A stretch of 56,633 nucleotides of DNA, the filler included, from Dugesia japonica (taxonomy: Eukaryota): assembly GCA_001938525.1 (NCBI GenBank). It is 5 parts of 5 records of this genome, joined end to end, with 100 filler letters (N's around TTAATTAATTAA, not from the genome) between each part and the next. Parts side by side here need not be neighbours in the genome. Positions count along the whole stretch, not along the records: positions 25,392 to 34,483 come from MQRL01195461.1; 4 more parts are not named here. One strand, given 5' to 3'. The notes beneath the pieces are model-generated. The model was given only the letters and a program-made list of their open reading frames with translations. It was not told where the DNA came from and did not search any database. The translations under genes were made by a program, and so were the position numbers. Positions 1,340 to 49,409 of the stretch are shown here, piece after piece (positions within the stretch are counted from its first letter, which is position 1; each line of letters begins with the position of its first letter).

Positions 1340-2230
1340 ATGTATACCAACTATTGTGGAAATTTAATACATAATGAACACAATCACGAAGTCATGGAAA
1401 ATTGCTGCAGTCTTATTTATTGCGAGAAAAAAATATGTTTGTCCATCATGTACTACAATAGGGTTAGGTACATACAGAGTTTTATAAGACACATGCACAT
1501 CAATTGTCTCAATTATTTTAAAAGAAGATAGTGCTGAAGAAAATTCTCCAAGGACATCAATGTAAGAAGTTTAAGGCTGAACCGGAAGTTATAGTTATTA
1601 AAGATAATTTTATAAACATTGAACCAGTCAAGGTTCTAGTTTTTGAGGATGATATCGAGGAAGAAATGGGCTGGAATAATATTCAAATAATTGAATAACT
1701 AAATGCAGAGGACCTTTTTGATGAAGATGATACAGAAGATCTGTTGCAAAAATATTTGCAAGAAGAAGCACACGTCGGTGGATCTGTTATTGAAACTGTT
1801 ATTGAATCTGTTATTGAAACGGATTTTTACAGATGCCACAAGATCTTGAAATTGGATATTTCAAGATTTAACATGGGAGAGATAATTTTACCAGACACTT
1901 TAAAAAACTGATTAAAGAAATGAAGGATATAAAAATCTAGTTTAGAATTCATAAGAGATCATGAAATAAAAACTTGTCATTTATCTAATAGTGCTATACT
2001 ACTTAATGATAAGTTTTCGAAGAGGGAAATAAGGCATTGAATGAGAAGATCGTTGTAAGAAGCTAAAAAGGAAATAGCTGGACTCTTGGTAGGATATTAG
2101 AAANNAATTTTAAATTGACAAAAATAAGCAAAGTTGTCAGACCGTAGTTCTATTCCAACGCCAGGAAATCTTGTCAGGAAACAAGCAATTGTTAACGTCA
2201 AAACCAGTGATAATAAATGTTTCATATATA
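1340..2230 (+). pseudogene. Polinton/Maverick protein-primed DNA polymerase B, N-terminal fragment
   Basis: SSIPTPGNLVRKQAIVNVKTSDNKCFIYS (2134-2230) resembles the invertebrate Polinton pPolB motif SSYIPLP..I..KKAIINIKN.DNKCFLWS. The upstream part is frameshifted, with a Cys/His-rich start. Confidence 0.6.
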
Positions 2231-2544
2231 GTTTTAAGTTATTTTTCCACATTTTTCTAATTTATTTTAAATTAAATGTAAATGTCAAGTTGCATACATA
2301 CACATGCAAGTGTATGTATGTATTTTTGTATGTATTATGATTATAATATTAGTCATATTAAAATGATATAAAATGTCAATAAAAAATATTGACACAAGAA
2401 AATTAAAAATTTAAATTGAAATAATTGATTTGAAGAAAAACTTGGCAACTATCAAAAGCTACCAAATAAAATAAATCAGAATTCAAAATTTAAAAATTAC
2501 TGCCAATAAAGCCTAGAAATTAAATTGCAGAGATAGAAAGACAA

Positions 2545-2822
2545 TTTGGTATATGGAGTAATCAGCAAACAAAATAAGGCCTTGTGTGCCATGTGTTCTG
2601 AAAGCGATTTGCCGAACATCATCAGTTAAACGTCACTATGAAAGTAATCACAAATGGCTTCTTGCTAAAAGCAAAGATAAACGCCAGTTAAAAAATACAT
2701 ATTTGCAATATTCTTTTATAAAGTTTGTTAAAAGTACATCGAACTTAGTATCTGCTAGTTTTGAAGTTTCAAAAATAATAGCTGGGCATGAAAAGTCTTT
2801 CAGTGATAGTGCATACATTACA
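2545..2822 (+). pseudogene. hAT (Buster/Charlie, GTF2IRD2-like) transposase N-terminal fragment
   Basis: YGVISKQNKALCAMCSES / ICRTSSVKRHYESNH (BED-like zinc finger, frameshifted), followed by ASFEVSKIIAGHEKSFSDSAYI (cf. AS..V...IAK..KPF.DGEFIK). Confidence 0.7.
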
Positions 2823-3879
2823 GATTCTAACTATGATGCACAACAAATAATCTTGAAAAGAAACAATATCTATGGAGGAGTGATTTTCATAATGAGAACA
2901 CAAGAGCGTATTGTAACTGCAAAATGTGAACGATGCGGAGGATGATTACAAAAAATCAGCATCAGAGCAGAAGGCATCGCACAAATTCTTGTGGTTACTG
3001 GGTATAATCCCTCAGATGGAATTTATTATCAACAAAAAGAAAATTTGACTAGTAGAAGAGTAACGAGGTTAAAATCCAAAGCCTAGTAACCCAACAAAAC
3101 GATTGGAAATTTGAAAAATTTGCAAAATTAAATTAAGGGTAATATTTATTTTATTTTTATTTTAAAATCACAAAATTAAAACTAAATCGATCAACTCAAT
3201 ATTAATTAAATAAATCCAAACGAAAAGAAATTTTAAATTAAATTAAACAAAATCTAAATTACACTGAGTCTATTTTAATAAAACCAATTTAAATAGAAAC
3301 TATTTCTCCAATAAATTCGATTGTAAAGAAATAGTTATTGATCAAAAAAGATCAATTTAAGGAATAAAAAAATAAAATCAAGTGACCAAAAATTACAGAA
3401 AGTGACGCAGGTTTTAATACAATCTGGACAGTAGCTTTTAAATAAATAGTTTGTTTCCCAGATAATTCATTTTTTATTATTCATCTTGTCAAAACGGTGA
3501 CGACAGACGACTAGATATTTTTCGGCCATAAGCTTGTAATAACTCTGAATCTTCATAAGGTAATAGCAAAATAAAATGCTTGTAAAATTATATTAAAGTA
3601 TTGTCAAGTTTTGAAGTGTTTTATGAAAATATTATTGAGTTATAATTGATAAAGTTTGGAAATTTTTTGTGTTAGTCTTCAAATTTGTTTATTATATTAT
3701 TATACTAATAATAATCTTAAATATTCTAAAGAGTTATAACCGCAGATTGAAATAATTTATCGTTCCTTCCAAACTCTCTTAATTTAACGCAACTGGAAAT
3801 TAACTGATTTTGGACTCTTCGTGAGGAATATTAAAATCACTTTTATTTACGAAAGCGCAATCTACATTAATTGAACCTC

Positions 3880-15929: not shown

Positions 15930-16490
15930 TAATGTGCCCATTGAACGTCTTGTTTTCATAAATTAAACCGGATTTAATCTCCATACATCACAAAGCTATG
16001 GATATTCACCAACGAATACATATGCATTCTCGACTGTTAAAGTAAATAAAGGAGTAAACCAGAGCTTAATGTGTGCAAGTGATTTATCTGCCTTTGTTGC
16101 TTTTGAAATTGTAAGTGGAGCATACGATGGTGAAAAGTTCAAGCAGTTCATCGAAACAAAATTTTTGATTATTTTAAAAGAAACAGGGGATCGATTCTAA
16201 TAATGGATAACTGCAGATTCCATCATGGGCTAGATGTGCTCGGGCTTCTTAGAGAAAATTTAATCCCGTTTAAGTTTATTCCTACATATTCTCGTCAGCT
16301 GAATCCTATTGAGGAATTTTTTGTAGTATTGAAAGCTAATTATAAAGCTATTCGGCCCCGGCCAGTTACAATAGGAGATGTGAGATTATCTGTGCAAAGT
16401 CTGATTAAAGCTGATGTTCCACTAAAACAATATTTTGAGAAAATGAGACGATTTATTTATCTTGGAATGGCGAGCCAACCATTTATCTAA
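15930..16490 (+). pseudogene. Tc1/IS630-like DD34E transposase, C-terminal part
   Basis: MDNCRFH...FIPTYSRQLNPIEEFF with exactly 34 residues between D and E. Upstream frameshifted AFEIVSGAYDGEKFKQFI. Confidence 0.85.
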
Positions 16491-16772: not shown

Positions 16773-16872
16773 NNNNNNNNNNNNNNNNNNNNNNNNNNNN
16801 NNNNNNNNNNNNNNNNTTAATTAATTAANNNNNNNNNNNNNNNNNNNNNNNNNNNNNNNNNNNNNNNNNNNN
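16773..16872. other. Artificial contig spacer (44 N + TTAATTAATTAA + 44 N)
   Basis: Six-frame stop 12-mer centred in a 100-bp gap; identical design at four sites. Confidence 0.95.
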
Positions 16873-18168: not shown

Positions 18169-19617
18169 CTATTTTTTCCCTTTTTTAGGAGAACTCTTTT
18201 TTGACGGAGGAGAACTTTTGCTTTTCTTTTTCTTATCAGGAGACTTTTTAACGTCTTGATTTTCTATTGGTTCAATTTGTTTAGGAGGTCTTGGCCAAAT
18301 TCCATCCATATCGTTAAGTGGCCATTGAACCAGATCAAATCCTTTAATAAATTTCAATGGTTCTGGCCGACGAGTTGGTGGAATTGGAGTCTGTTCCTTA
18401 TCAATAACGTGTTTTAACCATGCCATTTTATCCATATAAAACAAAGTGTCTCGATACCATCTGAACATAACTCTATCTATGTAAAATATTATATGATTTC
18501 TGTGATGATCGACTAAACAAATAATGCCATTTTTAGAAACGGAAAAATGACCCGGTCTGACAACTCGAAGTTCATCAACTTTCCAACCTCCAAAGCTACT
18601 TGTTTCCACACCTCCTTTATGAAATGCTCTTAAAAATCCCCATTGACTATCAGACACAGCGAGTACATTTAAACTATCTAGCCTCAAACAATATGGCTGT
18701 TTCATTCTTTCTAATCCAAACTCATAAATTGCACGAACAGTTATCCTATCAACAACTCTGTAACACATTTCTTTTATTATTTGAAAAACAAAGATTCTTG
18801 CGGGTCTAAGTGCGGCAACGTATAAAAATCCATTACCAGCTGCACAACCACCAGACGTTGCTAGGTGCACACAAAATGGTTCAGTCTTGGACCATCCTTG
18901 TAATCGAAAATCAACTGGAATTAATTTTCGGTAATGAAGTAATTCCATTCTTTGTATAGGATTTCTTATTATATAAATAGTATCATTATCAACTGTTACA
19001 CCTATTGGACGACCTTCGTCTATAAATGATTTTTGCTTTTCTTGATCTATTGACGGATCATCAGGATTATAATTTAATTCAAATTTATAATCACGTGTGT
19101 TTTCAATTTCCCCCTCTGGAGAAAATTGAGTCAGTGTTGTTTTTTTGACCGATGGACATCGAATCAAAGCCAAAATACGCCCAGTTTTTGGTGTTTCAAT
19201 AATTTGATATGGTTCACCTTTTGTTATGATATCAGGTAATTTTACTAAGTCATCAAAACATGGATCCAATTGATATCTCCAAATCTTTCGATTTTGAGGA
19301 TCTGAAACCCACAAATGACCCCATGAAGTAATAAGTGGACAAAATGGATTCCAAGAATATTCTCGATATATAAAATCTGGATTGTTAATATAAGGATACC
19401 ATGGTTGCCGTTTAACGTACATCATTCCCGGACCTTTCGGTGGTAGTGGAGGCGGGGTTTCTGGACGAGGTTCAGGCCAAAATGGTTCTTCAATTGCATC
19501 AGGAGAACCTCTTTTACCTTTTGGTGAATCCTTTTTACCTTTTGGAGAATCTTTCTTTTTCGGTGAATCTTTTTTTGATCCTTTTTTGCTGTCTGGAGAA
19601 CCCTTTTTAGATGGCAT
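18169..19617 (-). CDS. Intronless NHL-repeat-like beta-propeller protein with SPKK/Lys-rich N- and C-terminal tails
   Basis: Uninterrupted 482-aa ORF. Blade-like motifs: GHLWVSDPQNRKIWRY, GEPYQIIETPKTGRIL, GRPIGVTVDNDTIYI, GNGFLYVA, QPYCLRLDSLNVLAVSDSQWG, RPGHFSVSKNGIICLVDHHRNHIIFY. DSPKK/DSPKG repeats at the N-terminus and SSPKKGKK at the C-terminus. Confidence 0.85.
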   Translation of the reverse strand: MPSKKGSPDSKKGSKKDSPKKKDSPKGKKDSPKGKRGSPDAIEEPFWPEPRPETPPPLPPKGPGMMYVKRQPWYPYINNPDFIYREYSWNPFCPLITSWGHLWVSDPQNRKIWRYQLDPCFDDLVKLPDIITKGEPYQIIETPKTGRILALIRCPSVKKTTLTQFSPEGEIENTRDYKFELNYNPDDPSIDQEKQKSFIDEGRPIGVTVDNDTIYIIRNPIQRMELLHYRKLIPVDFRLQGWSKTEPFCVHLATSGGCAAGNGFLYVAALRPARIFVFQIIKEMCYRVVDRITVRAIYEFGLERMKQPYCLRLDSLNVLAVSDSQWGFLRAFHKGGVETSSFGGWKVDELRVVRPGHFSVSKNGIICLVDHHRNHIIFYIDRVMFRWYRDTLFYMDKMAWLKHVIDKEQTPIPPTRRPEPLKFIKGFDLVQWPLNDMDGIWPRPPKQIEPIENQDVKKSPDKKKKSKSSPPSKKSSPKKGKK

Positions 19618-21769: not shown

Positions 21770-22540
21770 TTAATACATTGAAGAAATTAATGAAGACTTT
21801 TCATTTCTCGGCACTGTTATTTTCACGATATTTTTCACACACATATTTTGCATTATTATGTAATGGTTTTTAATATCTTTTACTGCTTCGCGTAATTTAT
21901 AATAAAATACTTCATCATGCTCAATGATTCCTTGGATAAAATCTGACACATGTGAGAATTTCAATAATTTTGTAAATATTTTACCACGTTGATTGAAATA
22001 GTCGGTGAAAATATCCAAATCATTAACGAGTTGAGATTCGATTGAACTCAAACAGCTGATCACTTCTTCTTGAACTGAAACACCAAAATTATTCCCATCG
22101 GCAATTTCAGGAACCTTTAATTGAATCCATAACAATAACATTTTTACATCTTGGAGATTTTCAATCATTATCGGTTTTACAAGATTGAGAATGTCAATTA
22201 ATATTTTATTTGACTGCAGTTTTTCAACATCACTATAAGGAATTACTCGGCCGGGATTTTCAATAGAGCTTGAATCTTCGGAAGATGACAATTCAGTCTG
22301 CAAATTCTTTTTCTTATACTTTGATAAAGACTTTTTCAATGAATTTATTTGCTGTTTATTTTCCTTCTTTATTATGCCAATTACTTTTTCAGAATGAAAA
22401 TGTTCAGAACTGATAAGTTTGTTGATGACAACGATTTTCTGTGGGATTTTAACTTTTAATAGAGATTTACTTGAAGTGTGTAGATGTTTTTTAAAATCGA
22501 CCAATTCCGGAAATTGGTGAGATGATTTCTCGTTTGACAT
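21770..22540 (-). CDS. PSME3: Proteasome activator PA28/11S REG (gamma-like) subunit
   Basis: 256-aa intact ORF with activation-loop motif LWIQLKVPEIADGNNFGVSVQEE, YFNQRGK..TKLLKFSHVSDF, KNIVKITVPR, a C-terminal MY, and a basic insert (KKSLSKYKKK) like the REG-gamma NLS region. Confidence 0.93.
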   Translation of the reverse strand: MSNEKSSHQFPELVDFKKHLHTSSKSLLKVKIPQKIVVINKLISSEHFHSEKVIGIIKKENKQQINSLKKSLSKYKKKNLQTELSSSEDSSSIENPGRVIPYSDVEKLQSNKILIDILNLVKPIMIENLQDVKMLLLWIQLKVPEIADGNNFGVSVQEEVISCLSSIESQLVNDLDIFTDYFNQRGKIFTKLLKFSHVSDFIQGIIEHDEVFYYKLREAVKDIKNHYIIMQNMCVKNIVKITVPRNEKSSLISSMY

Positions 22541-25291: not shown

Positions 25292-25391
25292 NNNNNNNNN
25301 NNNNNNNNNNNNNNNNNNNNNNNNNNNNNNNNNNNTTAATTAATTAANNNNNNNNNNNNNNNNNNNNNNNNNNNNNNNNNNNNNNNNNNNN
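25292..25391. other. Artificial contig spacer
   Basis: 44 N + TTAATTAATTAA + 44 N. Confidence 0.95.
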
Positions 25392-26509
25392 ACGCCAAAT
25401 TTCATAAATATTTTCTTCAGCGCATCCAAGATTGGTCTTAGTTTATAAATTTTGTCACTATCAATAGTTGCATTATCATTTATATGAAGGTATAGCTTTA
25501 TTTGTTTGGATTTTTGTATTNNNNNNNNNNNNNNNNNNNNNNNNNNNNNNNNNNNNNNNNNNNNNNNNNNNNNNNNNNNNNNNNNNNNNNNNNNNNNNNN
25601 NCCATTAAAGAGAAGAATTCCATAAATATTTTTAATTCATTTATTTCAAGAGTAAAATTTGGATTATTTTTTTGTGCATCATAAATCAAGCTTTGCTCAA
25701 CAATAAAATTCAATAGGTCAATTGAAAACAATCTTCAAAAATTTAAAATTAGACTTTTATCCCTTTCCAATTTATCTTAGGTAATCTTGGATGAGGGCGT
25801 CATTTCATTTTCGTAAATTGGGTCAGAATTTTCCCATTTGGGAAGTAAGATTGTATTAACTTTTTTACGCGTGAAGGCTCATCTTCATTTGCTTGCGAAT
25901 TTCAGTATCATGTTTCTTCAAAAGTTCCTGCTATATCCTGAAGAATGCCGTTTTCAAACAATTATTCTTAATCAATATTTTCGTTTGTCAATTCGTCATG
26001 GAGTAGAGGAATAATAGCAATTTCAACAACTTCAACTTCATTATCATTCAAGTTTTCAATTTCTTCAGTTGTCAAATACTTTCGTCGAAACATGTTGAAA
26101 TAATGTAATTCTTAGGGCAAAGATAAAGTCAAATTATAGATTTATAATTCAAATTTAAAAAAATCCAAATAAATAATAAATAAATATTTATAAGAATCAA
26201 GCACATTTACGGTGTTTTTTTTTTGATAAAACAGCAAATTTTTTCAATTTAGTGTTAATATTATACTTACGAATTTTTTTTACAGTTTGGCTGTTGATAA
26301 TTGCTGATGATTATTGAATATAATTCACACTTAGTTACGCTACAATTATCTAGTTTAAATTTNNNNNNNNNNNNNNNNNNNNNNNGTTATATTTAGAAAA
26401 CATAAAAAACAATCTCTTGACTAAAATAATAACTTATTTACAATTATCATGGTTTTAATGCGATAAAAAATGCGTACTAAAAAAGGTACGTTGGCCGCTG
26501 ATGGGTTAA
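25392..26509 (-). mobile_element. piggyBac element, 5' end with TTAA site, TIR and degenerate transposase
   Basis: TTAA (26506-26509) followed by a CCCATCAGCGGCCAACGTACC terminus. Protein pieces: MFRRKYLTTEEIENL...IAIIP, LFSIDLLNFIVEQSLIYDAQKN...ELKIF, LHINDN...DKIYKLRPILDALK. Confidence 0.85.
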
Positions 26510-30570: not shown

Positions 30571-33539
30571 TAAAAAATAAGCTTTTACTTATTCGCCTCA
30601 ATCAAAAATTTAGTTTTTCACCTTATTGAAGTGTCGATTGAATTAAAAATCGCTAGGTACTTGTATTTGATTTATAGCATGTTACAATGTCATTAACTTT
30701 TCTATCACAAAAAATTAAATAAAAAACATAATTTCTTTCAATTTAACTCTATTTAGGACAAATGAATGAACTCAAATTGGAGATAATTAACAATTAATTA
30801 ATTAAAAATAAATAAATTAAAATTATTATAAAATTAAAATAAATACAATAAGATCAACATCTATGAATACAAATATTAAATAAAAGATAATATTGTCAAT
30901 ATTTATTAAACGAAGTAAAATCACAATGATTATTAATTATCCGAATTTGAAAATAACTCTGGATTTGAATAGGCTTGATCTGACAGATTGGATTGGGAGT
31001 TATTGATTTGTATTATGCAATATGCATATGTTATGTATTACGTAGACCTAAAATATCTATTACCGTTCGACGATGACGACTCAGCATCTTGTTGTCATTC
31101 GTAGATTTTCTTTTGTAGCAAAAGAGAAAGATTGTACAGCATGATCTTGGGTAAATGTACTTTTGATAAGGAGTTATGGAGGTTTTTTCATTGGTAATAT
31201 AATATATATAACATATAAAATAAGTTGTGTGTTAATTTAACGAATTGATTCGTTAAAAAAAGTAATTAAATGTATTAAATTAATGTATTAAACTTTACTT
31301 CAAGATCTAAAATACTAAACTACATACGTCTTTTCCTGCAATCTGATTGGTCTATACTGAACCTATTTTGTGTGTAAAATTTTTCTTGCAATATGATTGG
31401 TGCATACTGAACCATTTAATATATTTTCCCTGTCAGTCAGGGCATGGCAGGTAGTTCAGTGAGTCACTATCTACCTGCTTTGGTATTAATGAGGGCACAA
31501 ATTCAAATGTACCACATATTTTTTTAAATAATTATTTTTTTATTCTTTTTAACTTTGATTAACTTTGAATCAATAAATCTNNNNNNNNNNNNNNNNNNNN
31601 NNNNNNNNNNNNNNNNNNNNNNNNNNNNNNNNNNNNNNNNNNNTTGTAACATGAATTCTATCTATTGGCCAAGTTATTATTGATTTAAAAATATTTAAAT
31701 ATATTAAATTACAAAATTTGAAAATATCTAGTTTAAATTCATTGTTAAAGATTATTGTAATTATAATTATAAATATCATTTTTTATTAATTATAAAACTT
31801 AATTTCGAAATCTAAAATACTGAACTACATATGTATTTTACTGCAATCTGGATTAGTCGATACTGAACCACTTAAAAATTTTCCCACGTCAGTTATGTCT
31901 AGGCGCCAATATCTAATAATTTATATTGTATTATTAGTATTATTATTATATTATGTATTATTAGTATTAGTATTGTATTATTATTTTGAGACTACTAAGC
32001 AGTTATAATTGTTTAAAAAAGAAACAAAAAGTCAAAAATTTTCATTAAGTCATAATATTGGTCAAAAAAGTCAATTTTTTTTCTGTTAAAAAAGATTGCC
32101 CTAATTTATTACTGTTATAAATGCCTGCTTGATTCAATAACTCTGAATTATTTCAATTTAATAATAATGACTGAAATTGGTTAATATAAATATAATTTTC
32201 TTATATTCATTAGGGTGTTTCTTTTGAAGCATAGAGTTTTTTGTTTTACGTTTTTTCTTTATTATCCGGATCATTTTAGAATCACATATGCTTAATATAT
32301 ACTATTTATATGATATCATTTTATATGATAGCAACAAGAAAATATCCTCCAAACAGGGAAGGTAAACTAATCCCTGAAATAAAATAAAATTCAGTTAAAT
32401 AATATATTAATACATTTGTTCTTATATACAAAATAATTAGGAAAAAATTAAATGAAAAAATCATTAGATAATATAAAAATATATTTATATTTCGAAAAAT
32501 AATCTTACAAAGGATTAATTATCCATGCTTTTTTCGGATTTATGTTTGAAGGCTGTTCTCTTTCAATAGAATAATGAAATAGTCCTCATCAAAATTGCAT
32601 GCTCGATCTGAGTAGCAAGTATTTTGAGGATCAAATGTGCTGCGTAGACAGCACAATATCTCAAACCAATAATGCAGCTTTTAGAATTCGATTAAAAGCA
32701 TATAAAATCAGATATATCTAAAATTTTGTTTTTTATCTATTTGGCATTGCATTTCTAAAAGCTTTAAGATTTAAATAAAATATATTGACATGCAAAATTG
32801 AGTNAAATTTTGTAGATCACAAAAGGGGATTTCAAATAAATGTTATTTTTTAATAATACAAATGGTGTGCTTAACCAAACTAGAATTAAATATAAAAAAA
32901 TTAAGGTAAAATTAAGTTAGTTTTTAAGATTTTACATTGCCTGAAATTTTATGATCGTAGATGATCCTATTAGTCGAACAAATGCTGGTGGCATTTAAAT
33001 ATTACTTGAAAGTTTTATTATTATTGTCTTATTTTGTAGATTCTCTTAATTGATAATAACTAATCAATTATTGCTCTCAATAGTTTTTTCTCATATATAG
33101 TTTTATTTTGATTTTTATTGATTTCGTATTTTGCTTAGAGTTTGATTTCCATTTTATGGCTAATTTTGCAATAATTAAAAGCTATTGTCTATATTTTGAA
33201 AATTACATAATTAGAATGATCTATTTTTATTCTAAATTTTGGTATTAATAAAATCACTTTATGACTAATAAACCAATTATTATTTCCGTTGATTTAGACT
33301 TCATTAACTAAATTCATCAAACAGTTACAAAACAATAACACCAACGCATTCACTATTGTAATTAATAGATATAAACAAACGAAATAGGGGTTGATTGAAC
33401 TACTATATAACAGTACTACATAACAGATTTGAAATTTTGAACTACTTGAATTTTGTTATCTATTGATAAATAACTACTTGATTATATAGATTGATTGTAA
33501 TTTTGATGAGTTACTATAATGAGTGAGAAATTTCTATTT

Positions 33540-34052
33540 AAAGCGCCATGGGGGTCACCGGTGACCGGCGAACCAAGATTATTAGAAAATCGTCGCTTGA
33601 CTCTAGCTTTTCCCCGTAATTTTATTAAGTTCATGACGTGGATTTCTCGGTAGGCTCGTAGGCGAAGAAAGGCAATCATCAGTGTCATTATCTTTGCATT
33701 TTGTTAAATACATGGCTATTTTCATTCGAAAATTAGGTATTTTGTTATTTCTGAAGAGTTACCTGTTTGAACATTACTAATGCGTTCACAATACAAGTAT
33801 TCAATAACAGCTCTATTGCTGACATTTTATACCATTTTACAGTGCTACGAAATGGTGAACTGTATGGTATCATTTGATCCGATAAATCAACTGAAGCCTT
33901 TTCTAAATTATATTCGACAACTACTTTTGGTTTATCACATAAATACCATTTTTTATTTACTGTCGTCATTTCCGTTGAATTTTGAGTAAAAAGCATAAGC
34001 ACATCCCTTTTATCCTTCCATTTAAAGACTATTATACCTTTTTCATTTTCTC
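33540..34052 (-). pseudogene. piggyBac transposase C-terminal region and 3' subterminal palindrome
   Basis: KWKDKRDVLML...KPKVVVEYNLEKASVDLSDQM..YS...KWYK...NA.VMF, then shifted IPNFRMKIA...RHEL...ARVKRRF; palindrome ggtcaccggtgacc at 33553-33566. Confidence 0.85.
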
Positions 34053-34275
34053 TACGGTTGAAGCAATTCCAGATGCAATTTCTTGCAGTTCCAGCTAACG
34101 CACCAATAATTGCTGGTATTGCAGCTAGAAATGCAAATCCTCCTTTATGTTTTTGTTTATTAACTTCTTTTACTTTTTTACTAATATAATAATTTTTACC
34201 ATCAATTTTTATAGATTTACATTTCTTTGAATTTATTATTTTTTCTAATTCTTCTTCCGTTGGATTGTTTGTCAT
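34053..34275 (-). pseudogene. Polinton/adintovirus core protein resembling adenovirus pX (mu precursor)
   Basis: Basic N-terminus, then KHKGG|FAFLAAIPAIIGALAGTA; a 1-nt shift restores IASGIASTV (cf. pX RGGFLPALIPIIAAAIGAIPGIAS). Starts 6 bp after a pPolB stop. Confidence 0.65.
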
Positions 34276-34280
34276 TTTCT

Positions 34281-34483
34281 TTAAGAAAAATATGCATATC
34301 CATGTGGCTGCGTTTTTATACCATTATCTTCAATAATTCCTTTATCATCATATCCCATTAATGCAATCTTTTTTTGTTTTACTATTTCAATTTCATGTTC
34401 ATGAGATACTAAAGAATTATTTATTCCATAAAATATTTTTTTAGGATTATTTAAAACCTCATCGAAATCTTTCATCAACAATT
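34281..34483 (-). pseudogene. Polinton pPolB extreme C-terminus (truncated by contig end)
   Basis: SLVSHEHEIEIVKQKKIALMGYDDKGIIEDNGIKTQPHGY (cf. S..H.I.T..Q.K.AL..YDDKR.I..DGI.T.P.GH). Confidence 0.8.
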
Positions 34484-34583
34484 NNNNNNNNNNNNNNNNN
34501 NNNNNNNNNNNNNNNNNNNNNNNNNNNTTAATTAATTAANNNNNNNNNNNNNNNNNNNNNNNNNNNNNNNNNNNNNNNNNNNN
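34484..34583. other. Artificial contig spacer
   Basis: 44 N + TTAATTAATTAA + 44 N. Confidence 0.95.
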
Positions 34584-35221: not shown

Positions 35222-35880
35222 TTAAAAAACTCCACGCACCTTCTTCTCAACATCTAGACCTTTCATTCTTTCCTCTGAAATATCAAGATAACCACGTACC
35301 TTTGACAATACTTGTTCTTGTTCCAATTTTACGTACGGAAATTTGCCATGAATATTTATCTTCCTTCCAAATATTATTTCCATCGGAGAAAATCTTGTTA
35401 ACTCTTGTATCGTTGAGTTAATGGAATATTCAATTTTCGGTATGATTTCGTCACAGCACAATCCTGTTCGCCCATAATTTTAAAAATTGTCAAACATATC
35501 TCGGACCGTCCTAATTGTTCGCTCTGCTAAGCCGTTCAATTTATGATTATATGATGAAGTAAAAATCCCCTCAATATTAAATTTATCAACCAAGCCCTTG
35601 ATCTGATTCACTTCAAAGACTTTACCTCTGTCTGATACAATCAATTTCGGTTTTCCAAATTTGTAAATCAATTGATGTAAGATAACACGGTGAATTGTAT
35701 TTTAATCTTATTTTTGGGTTGGTGTTAAACTAATCATCTTGCTTAATTGATCGATTATTATGGCCATATAACGATTACTGCTTCTGCTTTCCTTCATATG
35801 CTCAATATCTATCACGATTTGATCCATAGGGTTCATAACCTTTCTTGGTATTAAATATTCGGCTGTCTTTGATGTTAGTA
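35222..35880 (-). pseudogene. Gypsy integrase core (DD35E), frameshifted
   Basis: QIVIDI, IIDQLSK, FGKPKLIVSDRG...TSSYNHKLNGLAER (35 aa between D and E), NSTIQELTRFSPMEIIFGR. Confidence 0.9.
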
Positions 35881-36067
35881 TTTTCCTTGATTATTTACCC
35901 ATGGTTTGATTACTTGTTGTAAATTGTGTCTAATTGACCTTTTGATACCTGTTACTACTGCGTATGTCGGCCTATGCTATCTTTTGCTATCTTAAATGAC
36001 AATATCTTCTGACTTTTCTTCAATACTCATTGAAAATTTTAAAATTTATCGAATATTCCTCAATTTC

Positions 36068-36550
36068 CTACAAGGATTTATCTGGGTTCATTGCGATTGA
36101 CTCCTTTACTTTCCCGGAGCACATTTGATTTGAAATTATATCCTTCACGATTATGTCTTCTGTTTGCTTCCCCGACAAAACACTTCTTACCAACTTCCTC
36201 ACTCTAATTACAAAATTCTCATACCTTTCATTTGATCGTTGATAAACTTGGCTCAAATCATCGATCTTTTGCAAAAATGTTTTCGACTTGATGTACTTTG
36301 CACTATACCAATTTCTTGTATCTTCATCTGACGGAATCTTTATTCTTTCTTTAAAGGCTATCCATAATTCCTTCAAGTCATCGTGCAGCAATAAATCAAA
36401 TGCTGCAAATAAATTTAAAGAATTTATGGTTAACAAATCTTCAATTGGTTGCAGCCACTCTTTTGTTTCTTCCTTGTAGCCAAAAAACATTTTTATTATT
36501 GGATAAATTGATTCTTGAACCTTCTTTGGCAACGATTCTAAAATTTTCAT
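36068..36550 (-). pseudogene. Gypsy gag
   Basis: ORF just after the PBS containing QRSNERYENFVIRVRKL (Q...E....F..R major-homology-like motif). Confidence 0.75.
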
Positions 36551-36989
36551 CCGCTGCTGACTCTTTGTGAGAACTGTGATTTCGGCGTGTTCGCCAGTTA
36601 AAACACCATCTTGACACATTAAATAATAATACACTTTTCAAATATTTATTATAAAATATAAAATTATAAAACAATTTTTGAATTTCATTAAAATAGGAAA
36701 AAACTTCGATCAAAATAAAATTTATTTGAACTTTTTTACAAATAAATTTATTTTTATCGAAGCTTTTTCTTATTTTAATGAAATCTCAAATGCGATCAAT
36801 GGTTAAGTCCAACNNNNNNNNNNNNNNNNNNNNNNNNNNNNNNNNNNNNNNNNNNNNNNNNNNTTAATGAAATCTCAAATGCGATCAATGGTTAAGTCCA
36901 ACAATTATTCTCACAATAATTGTAATTATAAAAATTTCTGATTATTTAAACAACAATATTATTGTTACTGTCAGATATCAGCATTCAAA

Positions 36990-37659: not shown

Positions 37660-39049
37660 CCGTTTTTAATTTCGTAAAACAGTATTTGAAGAACATGGAT
37701 TGGAACCGCTAAGATTTGTTTTATTACCAGGATTGAACTGGTCAAGTGCTCTCACGTCGATGGATAGACAAAGATAATTACTTCAAGATGCTGAAATGCA
37801 TCGTCTATTTGAATTAGGAATTAGTGGAGGAATGACTTTTGTGAACAAACATTATGTAAAAGCAGATAAGAATACCTCACTGCTTTACACTGATATTATT
37901 AATCTATATGGTTGAGGCTTAGCACAACTTTTACTATATAGAGATTTTGAATTTATCTCAGAAGATCAGATTGAAGAAACATACCAAAAGATCTTCGCCA
38001 ATAACAATAACGTTATTGGATACCTGCTTAAAATTAATCTTGAAATACCGATCAAACATCATGTTAGATTAGATCAATTACCTTTGACTCCAGAACATAA
38101 ATATCCACCTGGATCAAAAGTTAAGAGGTTACTAGCGACACATGAACCAAAACAACATAATATCATATATTTAAGATTATTGGAATTGTATATAAAACTT
38201 AGAGCTCATATGACCGCGGTGCATAGAATAATCAAGTTCAAACAAACTAAAATATTTGCAAATTACATCAATGCAAATTCAACGAGAAGAGCAGAATCAA
38301 AGTCTAAATTAGAAAAAGACCTTTATAAATTATTAAACAATACGCTATGTGGTAAGACAGTTAAGAATTTGAAAAATTGCATGCATCTCAGGCTTTGTAA
38401 CAATGAAAGGAAATTCATAACTTACACTAGGACTAAAGGCTGTATTGCTAGAAAGATATATCAAATGTCTATATAGACCCATTTATATTGTTCAGGTGGT
38501 TCTAAATTTGAGTAAATTGTGAATTTATAGTTTCCAAAATAAAGAGTTGAAATATATCGTCAACAATTTCATTGGAAATTGATATTATTGCTGAAGATAT
38601 GGATAGCTTTTTCTAGTCATGTACCGGAGTAGATAGAAACCCACTCTTGTCTCAGATAAAATCAGATGGTCTCTTGGATACAAGCAATTACCCAAAGGAT
38701 CATTCACTCTAATCCTATAATGCGGCCAACATAATTGGATTGTTTAAAGATGAATGAGAAGGTGAAGATTATACTGAATGGTATTCCTTAGGCATATATT
38801 TTATAGTTTGAAGAAAGCAGATGCTAGTATGATAATGAAATAGAAAGGGATCAGTTTAAAATAAACAGGTTTTATGCATATAATAAAGATAAAGACGGAG
38901 AAGAAGAACCAAACAAGGTTATACAGACTAGCTTTCAATCAATAAATCATCAGGTTTATTCAATAGAGAGTATGAAACGCGTATTGTCTTGCCTGGATGA
39001 TAAACGCTTTTGGAGTGAAAGAAATATTAGTATGACATATAGTCATTAA
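37660..39049 (+). pseudogene. Polinton/Maverick pPolB polymerase domain
   Basis: FRKTVFEEHGLEP..FVLLPGLNWSSAL; LFELGISGGMTF; LLYTDIINLYG* (motif A); EKDLYKLLNNTLCGKT (motif B); IIAEDMDSF (decayed DTDS); LDTSNYPKDH; IGLFKDE; LSCLDDKRF. Confidence 0.92.
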
Positions 39050-47574: not shown

Positions 47575-47805
47575 GAATTAAATGTTCATCTATAGTAATA
47601 TTGTTGGTGATTCAAAATTTTCTTTGTTGAAATCAGTATGGCTGGAGAGTTATGAAGTTGATCAATTATTTCAAGTTATAGTCAAGAATTCAATGTATCT
47701 ACAAATCACTACTTCATGTATAAACAATAAAGAAATCAACATACGTGACGATAACGGGGATTTAATTCTTTGGATAACAAACTGAATATTTAGATTTAAA
47801 TGATA
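47575..47805 (+). pseudogene. Polinton minor capsid (penton) protein C-terminus
   Basis: MFIYSNIVGDSKFSLLKSV...MYLQITTSCINNKEINIRDDNGDLI (cf. YVY.DIV...VGD....LL..V...Y.P.....I..I.I.IRD..G). Confidence 0.8.
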
Positions 47806-47829
47806 CTCTTGTATGTTCAAAAGTCTGAT

Positions 47830-48615
47830 GAAGTACCAGGTAATTTCATATTGCATAGTCTATTCAATGATATAAATNTTCAATTAAATAATATTAAAGC
47901 ATTAATTGAGACTATTTTGAATTATAATAGAAATACAAAGTATGTATATCTTAATGCAGTGGGTTATGGAAATGATGATTTTAGACAAAGAATTATTAAA
48001 TCATCAAAACCATGGTCTCTATTTAGTCCTCTACAACTAGATTTCATGGATCAACCAAAATATCTTATTCCAAGTGTCAATGCTCACATTCGATTGAAAA
48101 GAGCAAATCCTAGAATGTGTTTGGAATTTTAAAACTAATGAATCAAAATATAAATTATTGGATGCATAATTAATGATTAGAAGAGTTCAAGTGGGTTCGT
48201 CAATACTAACAGCTCATTAAATTGGATTAACCAAACAAAATGCTATTTATCCTAAAAAATCCAAGGAAATTGTATCGTATGCAATTAGTAACGACAGTTC
48301 ATTGTTTAATAAGGAAAAATCTTTGGAGATTGTAAATTGCCAAGCTTTATTCTGGTAGCATTTCAAGATGAAAAACGATATAAAGGAAAACAAAAATATG
48401 AATTATGAAATAACCCTTATATTTTAAAACCAAATATTCATTTTTCACCTATTTCTTGCTCCAGACTTTGATATAAACCAAAGTCAGTTACCAATGCAAA
48501 NAAATCTAAAGTTAGATATAAAATTTGAAACTCCTTTGTTGGCTTCAGCACATGTAATAATTTATGAAGTATTTGAAAATGAAATTCAAATTACTGCCAA
48601 GAGAAAAATATTGCT
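47830..48615 (+). pseudogene. Polinton double-jelly-roll major capsid protein (deleted, frameshifted)
   Basis: NFILHSLFNDI..QLN; KALIETILNY; LQLDFMDQPKYLIPSV..HIRLKR; LMIRRVQV..SILTAH..GL.KQNAIYP; KLPSFILVAF; LAPD; NLKLDIKFETPL...VIIYEVFENEIQITAKR. Confidence 0.9.
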
Positions 48616-48789
48616 TTTAACAATCAATTTTGGTTTAAACAATCTCAATATCACGAAATTTTAAGTAAATGAAGTTTATTATTCAAATAATTTATTTATT
48701 TAATTATTTCAATTCANATAGACAAAATTGGAAAACAATGGTTAGGATCAGATTGCTTAGGAGTATTTCCAATAGACAAGATTCCAAAC

Positions 48790-49030
48790 TTTTAAGTAAT
48801 GTAGCACTAATCATCAATACTCAGAGCTCAAACCTCGGCGGTGAACACTGGTTAGCTGTTTATCATAAGCCTGAACATATACTAGTATTTGATCAATTGG
48901 GATTTTATTATTCATCACTTCTAGTCTCGCAACTATCGAGTTTATGAAAACCTATTATTTATAATCGAACAAAATATCAACAATGGTTAGCTATAAATTA
49001 CGGTGAACATTGCCTATTGTTGTTAAGAAA
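48790..49030 (+). pseudogene. Adenain-like (adenoviral-type) cysteine protease of a Polinton
   Basis: LIINTQSSNLGGEHWLAVY...VFDQLG (catalytic H, D), then YNRTKYQQ...NYGEHCLL (Q present; the catalytic C of CG.HC appears mutated to Y). Confidence 0.88.
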
Positions 49031-49409
49031 ACCACATGGCAGATGAAATTTCGTGTTGAATAAATTTATTGAATAAAAAATTGTTACTTGCTTAGTGACT
49101 AACTGTATTATTTTTATTAATTTAAATTGAAAATATATTAACACAAAGAATAATAAAGAACAGTAATAACAACCATAATAATAAATTAAAAATTTATTTA
49201 ATACAACTCTTCATAGTGTTTAATTTATATAAGAGTCTGTTTCAATCATTTAATTTTGTCAACACTATAGTACGAACAATTTTGAGCTATATAAAAAGGT
49301 AATGATAAAATAATAATTGCAAAAAATATAAAAACAAACAATAACAACACAATTATAAATAAAAATTTATTATATATAATTTTTTCTTTAGGTGTTTAAT
49401 TTTTTTCAA

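Follow-up and report, generated by a model that had tools for sequence, protein, structure and literature searches.

A truncated pX-like Polinton gene joined in frame to a piggyBac transposase fragment in Dugesia japonica

Architecture of the chimeric frame

The analyzed stretch of DNA, referred to here as the window, comprises 56,633 nucleotides, filler included, from Dugesia japonica, a host with AT-rich DNA. Its minus strand contains an open frame of 176 codons at 33745-34275, with the ATG at 34275 and the stop ending at 33745. The encoded protein begins with a Lys-rich segment (residues 1-45; 12 Lys and zero Arg), continues as HKGG followed by FAFLAAIPAIIGALAG, and then carries the motifs KWKDKRDVLML, VDLSDQM, and KWYK, confirming the frame described in the original prediction. 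The window holds only seven ATG frames of at least 100 residues, and this one, open from a native ATG, is among them.

Two truncated genes and an off-frame bridge make up the frame. The front piece (residues 1-64; 34084-34275, minus strand) is the beginning of a gene resembling that of adenovirus core protein X (pX) and found in Polintons, DNA viruses that insert themselves into the genomes of their hosts. It contains the Lys-rich N-domain, an H-K-G-G/F site (the slash marks the predicted cut; GG at 34143-34138), and the start of a hydrophobic segment. Residues 2-61 align with the profile of the family described below (hhalign, 97.7%, E=2.3e-12). A frame break follows at about 34079-34085, and the remaining hydrophobic segment lies in the neighbouring frame of the minus strand at 34053-34083, where it is read off-frame as residues 65-74. 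The sequence IASGIASTV, which had been expected to continue the gene after a frame shift, is encoded in that frame at 34079-34053. The segment maps to family-profile positions 71-84, with E=0.55 when taken alone.

The viral piece, frameshifted near 34080, ends near 34053. The rest of the frame (residues 75-176; 33745-34052, minus strand) comes from the interior of a piggyBac transposase, is read in the transposase frame, and keeps only the region of the last catalytic Asp. The piggyBac copy then runs on out of frame to about 33540, as judged from translations and from a contig depth that exceeds the flank to about 33544. This remainder (33538-33744, minus strand) has a probable end, with TTAA at 33538 and a 14-nt palindrome at 33553-33566 that may mark a piggyBac end. 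Length differences between the window and the contigs of other copies occur at 34079-34083, in all three DNA runs compared, and at 33753; these positions correspond to the two frame breaks.

Both pieces are cut mid-gene, and the junction falls within coding sequence on either side rather than at the end of an element. Ten random codons of the window stay open 46% of the time. Multiplied by a one-in-three register, this gives an open off-frame bridge a chance likelihood of about 15%.

The piggyBac tail is borne out by a partial match of residues 74-165 to Pfam DDE_Tnp_1_7 (PF13843; E=5e-9, 36.4 bits versus a cut-off of 22.4, profile positions 257-348 of 349). The rear part also aligns with residues 365-462 of the piggyBat transposase (9c0f, E=1.5e-7) and with residues 414-486 of the 594-residue T. 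ni transposase (6x67, E=0.0064). D268, D346, and D447 of piggyBac are all described as required in the accessible text of PMC2533014. Since only residues 414-486 are covered, D268 and D346 are missing, and the rear part is therefore no working transposase. It shares the end of the catalytic domain with piggyBac transposases and differs from them in lacking the N-terminal two-thirds, these two aspartates, and an in-frame C-terminal end.

Surroundings of the frame

Upstream of the chimera, a frame at 34281-34483 on the minus strand is the probable 3' end of a protein-primed DNA polymerase B gene, cut upstream by a gap. Its TAA stop occupies 34283-34281, and five bases separate it from the chimera ATG; the 6 bp stated earlier is a matter of counting. 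The stop just ahead of the ATG thus stands, and the polymerase identity is weakly indicated by a single BLASTP alignment (E=0.003) with the tail, at 38828-39046, of a second PolB in the window. This PolB is itself broken (37916-39046, plus strand, Pfam match), and its upstream part matches DNA_pol_B_2. The upstream piece has no Pfam match and no useful match in PHROGs, viral contigs, or the Atlas; many contigs related to it occur in the DNA runs. One match in the viral-contig scan, locus L088, was rejected as a phage primase-helicase-like gene.

The gap at 34484-34583 consists of 100 bases (N44, a six-frame stop linker, N44), and the DNA beyond it need not adjoin. The same pattern occurs four times, at 16773, 25292, 34484, and 43207, so separate contigs must have been joined to form the window.

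Remnants of Polinton, LTR, Tc1, and piggyBac elements abound throughout the window, all of them broken. A capsid-like piece (47800-48661, plus strand) and a PolB-like piece (1699-2337, plus strand), assigned by their motifs, presumably derive from broken Polintons. LTR retrotransposon debris with weak gag and rve matches lies at 35225-36637 (minus strand), and a DDE_3 transposase piece at 16134-16487 (plus strand). A probable second piggyBac piece (25343-25734, minus strand) has no Pfam match and is assigned by a motif. Two further single-frame genes lie on the minus strand. One, at 21770-22540, encodes a very divergent PA28 proteasome activator with three relatives found, the best at 56%. The other, at 18169-19617, encodes a 482-residue protein whose ends are rich in SPKK and which weakly matches an NHL repeat.

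The junction in sequencing runs

Four of 24 sequencing runs were compared with the window: the DNA runs X1, X3, and X6, from three studies, and the RNA run X22. An artefactual join between two repeats is conceivable, as the assembly is a draft with many gaps, one of them about 430 bases from the junction. In both X3 and X6, the eight longest of the listed pieces include none that spans it (5,630 pieces lie beyond these). In X1, however, which may be the source sample, a 118-base contig (record 7) crosses 33994-34111 with zero differences at a depth of 18.2 and extends more than 31 bases to each side of the junction. The region 34040-34070 is thus spanned exactly and misassembly is ruled out in at least one run, which leaves an artefact improbable. 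All three DNA runs match 33777-33892 exactly, which shows that the locus occurs in more than a single sample.

Summed contig depth, which is no measure of copy number, steps from 8-14 in the flank to about 45-216 over the piggyBac part and about 1,000-158,000 over the Polinton part. Between 1,822 and 1,929 contigs align per DNA run and are mostly 90-99% alike. The depth steps and these contigs together show many unfused relatives in the host DNA. A contig joint from 33485 to 34366, skipping 880 bases, is also seen at about flank depth in all three DNA runs; its short side measures 28 bases, and it is possibly a repeat artefact.

The chimera might instead be a young expressed host gene, combining a basic N-domain, a hydrophobic stretch, and a piece with a transposase fold. 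Such a gene would agree with a frame open over 176 codons from a native ATG and with the presence of the locus in all three DNA runs. The remaining evidence makes it very improbable. In X22, four of 13.6 million reads match, all partially and at 90-95% likeness, and none lies over 33250-34089; this covers one run, a quarter read, of tissue not given and without a control gene. The RNA check thus returned no junction read in the single RNA run. The exact 176-residue protein is absent among 15 billion sequences, and the fold is only partly kept. Differences between the transposase part and other copies are non-synonymous at eight of 11 majority and six of seven minority positions, against 0.81 expected at random in each case, a small and unpolarised count drawn from the 18 differences listed. 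On these small numbers, the differences look neutral, with no sign of purifying selection. None of the 123 relatives examined below is fused: in BLASTP of the 176-residue product the match never passes residue 95, and the profile match of the chimera to the family stops at residue 61. There is accordingly no sign that the chimera acts as a gene.

Origin of the join

The chimera is probably a chance, non-functional join of two dead elements, formed by deletion or recombination between a Polinton and a piggyBac copy. The origin by deletion or recombination first proposed for the frame is thereby retained, with both genes truncated and many unfused relatives. A Polinton or piggyBac copy would have inserted within or beside the other. 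Deletion would then have erased the remaining viral coding sequence along with the N-terminal two-thirds of the transposase, and by chance a frameshift would have let translation from the viral ATG run on in the transposase frame.

Alternatively, the locus could be the remnant of a composite in which a Polinton carried, and moved with, a piggyBac transposase. The precedent is Teratorn of fish, described in the accessible text of PMC5601938 as a piggyBac-herpesvirus fusion of 180 kb that is still transposing. Like Teratorn, the locus joins DNA virus sequence to piggyBac sequence, the two parts lie on one strand, and a possible piggyBac end is located at about 33540. Teratorn, however, has an active transposase, whereas a mere scrap is left here, in a single junction of two truncated genes with no intact transposase and no multi-copy composite. 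The junction contig reaches a depth of 18, while the two parts on their own reach hundreds to thousands, and piggyBac sequence is absent from all three related metagenome loci, which span only 1.4-4.2 kb. A composite origin is thus highly improbable, and the chance join of dead elements is the preferred reading.

The pX-like family

An exhaustive search of 1.84 billion proteins with residues 1-64 returned ten proteins at E<=0.001, and nine are true look-alikes, making the likeness of the front part more than chance. A word-index search with the same residues returned no match. One candidate relative, P0006, was rejected as spurious (a 739-residue repeat, 23%). Another protein, P0005 (66 residues), lacks the GG site and entered neither the alignments nor the counts. 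A family profile built from eight look-alikes and the window piece was used to score 8,000 candidates and puts the family at no fewer than 220 stand-alone proteins, 120 of 220 being listed. The 123 relatives examined are the eight from the exhaustive search and 115 new ones from the profile search.

The site is strongly conserved. GG precedes a hydrophobic run in 121 of the 123 relatives; the other two are truncated at the site. Within the alignment, GG is invariant in 69 of 69 relatives. The P4 position of the 121 sites is occupied by Lys (109), His (9), Arg (2), or Ile (1), the single Ile arising where the rule picked a later GG; these counts are perhaps biased by selection, because the search profile already had Lys or His there. 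Among 49 representatives sharing under 60% identity, P4 is basic in 48 (Lys 40, His 6, Arg 2; Val 1). The His at P4 of the window site, originally called non-canonical, is therefore odd only in comparison with adenovirus.

A second motif, GxG-[LIVF]-[YF]-[LI], is found toward the C terminus, with 145 occurrences in 92 of the 123 proteins. The commonest residue two places ahead of it is Lys, at 59 of 145 sites against a background of 14%. Some relatives contain two tandem GG-hydrophobic sites (P0111, P0125, P0076, P0079, and P0129). P0129 has a longer N-domain, which may be GasderminX/PZ-like.

The relationship to adenovirus pX is detected mainly through the relatives. The window piece itself has no match to Adeno_PX (PF05829) at E<=0.1 and does not reach the gathering score. 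Among the 69 aligned members, 30 match this Pfam family weakly at E<=0.01, and the next family is matched by six. The Adeno_PX check of the N-terminal part thus failed for the window and succeeded, weakly, for its relatives. Adenovirus pX chain 9lr9_E of the PDB aligns over the pX segment of the family with E=0.64.

It is conceivable that the front part comes from a Polinton gene whose pX likeness is convergent, reflecting a Gly/Ala-rich hydrophobic stretch that is no protease substrate. This would fit the Adeno_PX matches, most of which fall below the Pfam cut-off, the PDB E-value, and the basic P4, which differs from the adenovirus consensus M/LXGG (PMC7998265, whose accessible text also describes three pX fragments). 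Set against these are the invariant GG, the rank of Adeno_PX as top family, and one relative, at locus L046, that passes the Adeno_PX cut-off (29.8 versus 25 bits). Moreover, the related mavirus protease cuts at GG/X and GY/G, with no hydrophobic P4 stated in the accessible text of PMC6048507. Convergence is thus unlikely, and a pX-like substrate is preferred.

Genomic context of the family

A pattern scan of metagenome contigs yielded 86 loci, which with L001 gave 87 to be tested; three contain true members and 84 are chance pattern matches. L001 was rejected because it encodes a phage protein that fails the family profile. All three true loci adjoin Polinton genes. L065 contains an A32 ATPase, a PLA2-rve integrase, and a SLATT gene; L046 contains a double-jelly-roll (DJR) capsid gene; and L049 contains what looks, on visual comparison with L046, like the start of a capsid gene. 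In the window itself, the one such neighbour is the weakly supported PolB end. The presence of A32 ATPase, rve, and capsid genes beside relatives identifies the family as a Polinton/adintovirus gene. This upholds the original assignment of the N-terminal part to an adintovirus-type core protein, a pX-like virion gene. Scans of viral contigs for the family gave nothing or false matches. In the Atlas, P0002 falls in viral clusters without names, one with Adeno_PX in 20% of its members, which serves as a lead only.

At L065, a protease-like domain of 165 residues, recognized by motif order only, is fused in frame before a full pX-family protein (2182-3483, minus strand). The domain has no Pfam protease match, no PDB match, and no fold match, and its single-sequence model has a pLDDT of 37. 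It represents a possible enzyme-substrate fusion, a candidate drawn from sequence. On the opposite strand, at 919-2082, a parvovirus-type PLA2 domain is fused to the rve integrase, both over the Pfam cut-off. Two small Lys-rich frames on the minus strand, one at L065 (580-909; K-G-E-G followed by an amphipathic-looking stretch) and one at L046 (1971-2222; weak family-profile match), possibly encode a second core protein.

The original prediction named an adenain-family protease near 48.7 kb as the candidate partner. A protease piece is present at 48669-49047 (plus strand; Peptidase_C5, E=0.004), broken by an in-frame stop at 48945-48947. It is on the opposite strand at a distance of 14 kb, with two gaps in between, and aligns poorly: E=0.053 with the L065 domain, and no alignment between the capsid piece beside it and the L046 capsid tail. 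It is probably not the partner of this gene and probably belongs to another Polinton lineage.

Comparison with known systems

pX-like domains have already been described in the adintovirus proteins PLA2X and GasderminX (Starrett 2021, accessible text of PMC8502044), and a further class, Macc, is defined in Buck 2024 (10.1101/2024.03.25.586562). The family shares with these core genes a pX-like hydrophobic segment after GG, and its relatives occur among A32 ATPase, DJR capsid, rve integrase, PLA2, and SLATT genes. Compared with PLA2X and GasderminX, its pX-like segment starts near residue 45-50, behind a short domain rich in Lys, and a long C-terminal part comes after it. Among the 69 members, Pfam detects neither a PLA2 nor a gasdermin domain; the gasdermin call in the accessible text of PMC8502044 used structure-aware searches. 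Unlike an intact core gene of a Polinton bounded by terminal inverted repeats, the window copy is frameshifted and truncated and has a gap upstream.

With adenovirus pX (the pX/mu precursor), the family shares GG followed by a segment of Leu, Pro, Ile, Ala, and Gly, as seen in the alignment to 9lr9_E. It differs in having Lys, His, or Arg at P4 rather than Met, Leu, or Ile (H-K-G-G in the window), in an N-terminal part that is Lys-rich rather than an Arg-rich mu peptide, and in relatives that are about twice as long and lie in Polinton context. The accessible text of 10.1101/341131 describes pX similarity in adomavirus LO6, which appears to be cleaved by protease in virions, and gives the protease motifs (M/I/L)XGXG and L(L/R)GG.

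In the accessible portions of PMC8097293, PMC11131425, 10.64898/2026.10.13.758929, and 10.1101/2025.02.07.637071, nothing concerns a pX-like gene of this kind or such a chimera. The literature searched contained no statement of a basic P4 and no paper on Polinton protease specificity; supplementary sets such as File S2 of PMC8502044 may already include the family.

Implications for Polinton core proteins

The front of the chimera adds a further, broken copy to an already described type of Polinton gene. Its intact parent, about 150-200 residues long in relatives, would be a minor virion core protein. The papain-like protease of the element is predicted to cut it after K/H-x-G-G, baring a hydrophobic Gly/Ala-rich segment in the manner of adenovirus pX. 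Maverick particles were unobserved as of 2021, according to the accessible text of PMC8097293.

The basic P4 in 48 of 49 representatives and the leading Lys before the second GxG motif underlie the predicted preference of the Polinton protease for a basic P4. We tentatively suggest that the family may form a Polinton core-protein class without a name, of at least 220 sequences with a K/H-x-G-G maturation site, whose protease would prefer a basic P4, the opposite of the adenovirus protease.

The chimera itself is of little weight, since a genome rich in repeats can be expected to contain joins between defunct mobile elements. Of more use is the near-fixed K/H-x-G-G in a large family, which points to a specific candidate substrate of the Polinton protease and to the position where it would be cut. 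If its protease-like domain is true, the L065 fusion would be a ready-made test case of an enzyme with its substrate. The family also adds to the evidence tying Polinton core proteins to those of adenovirus.
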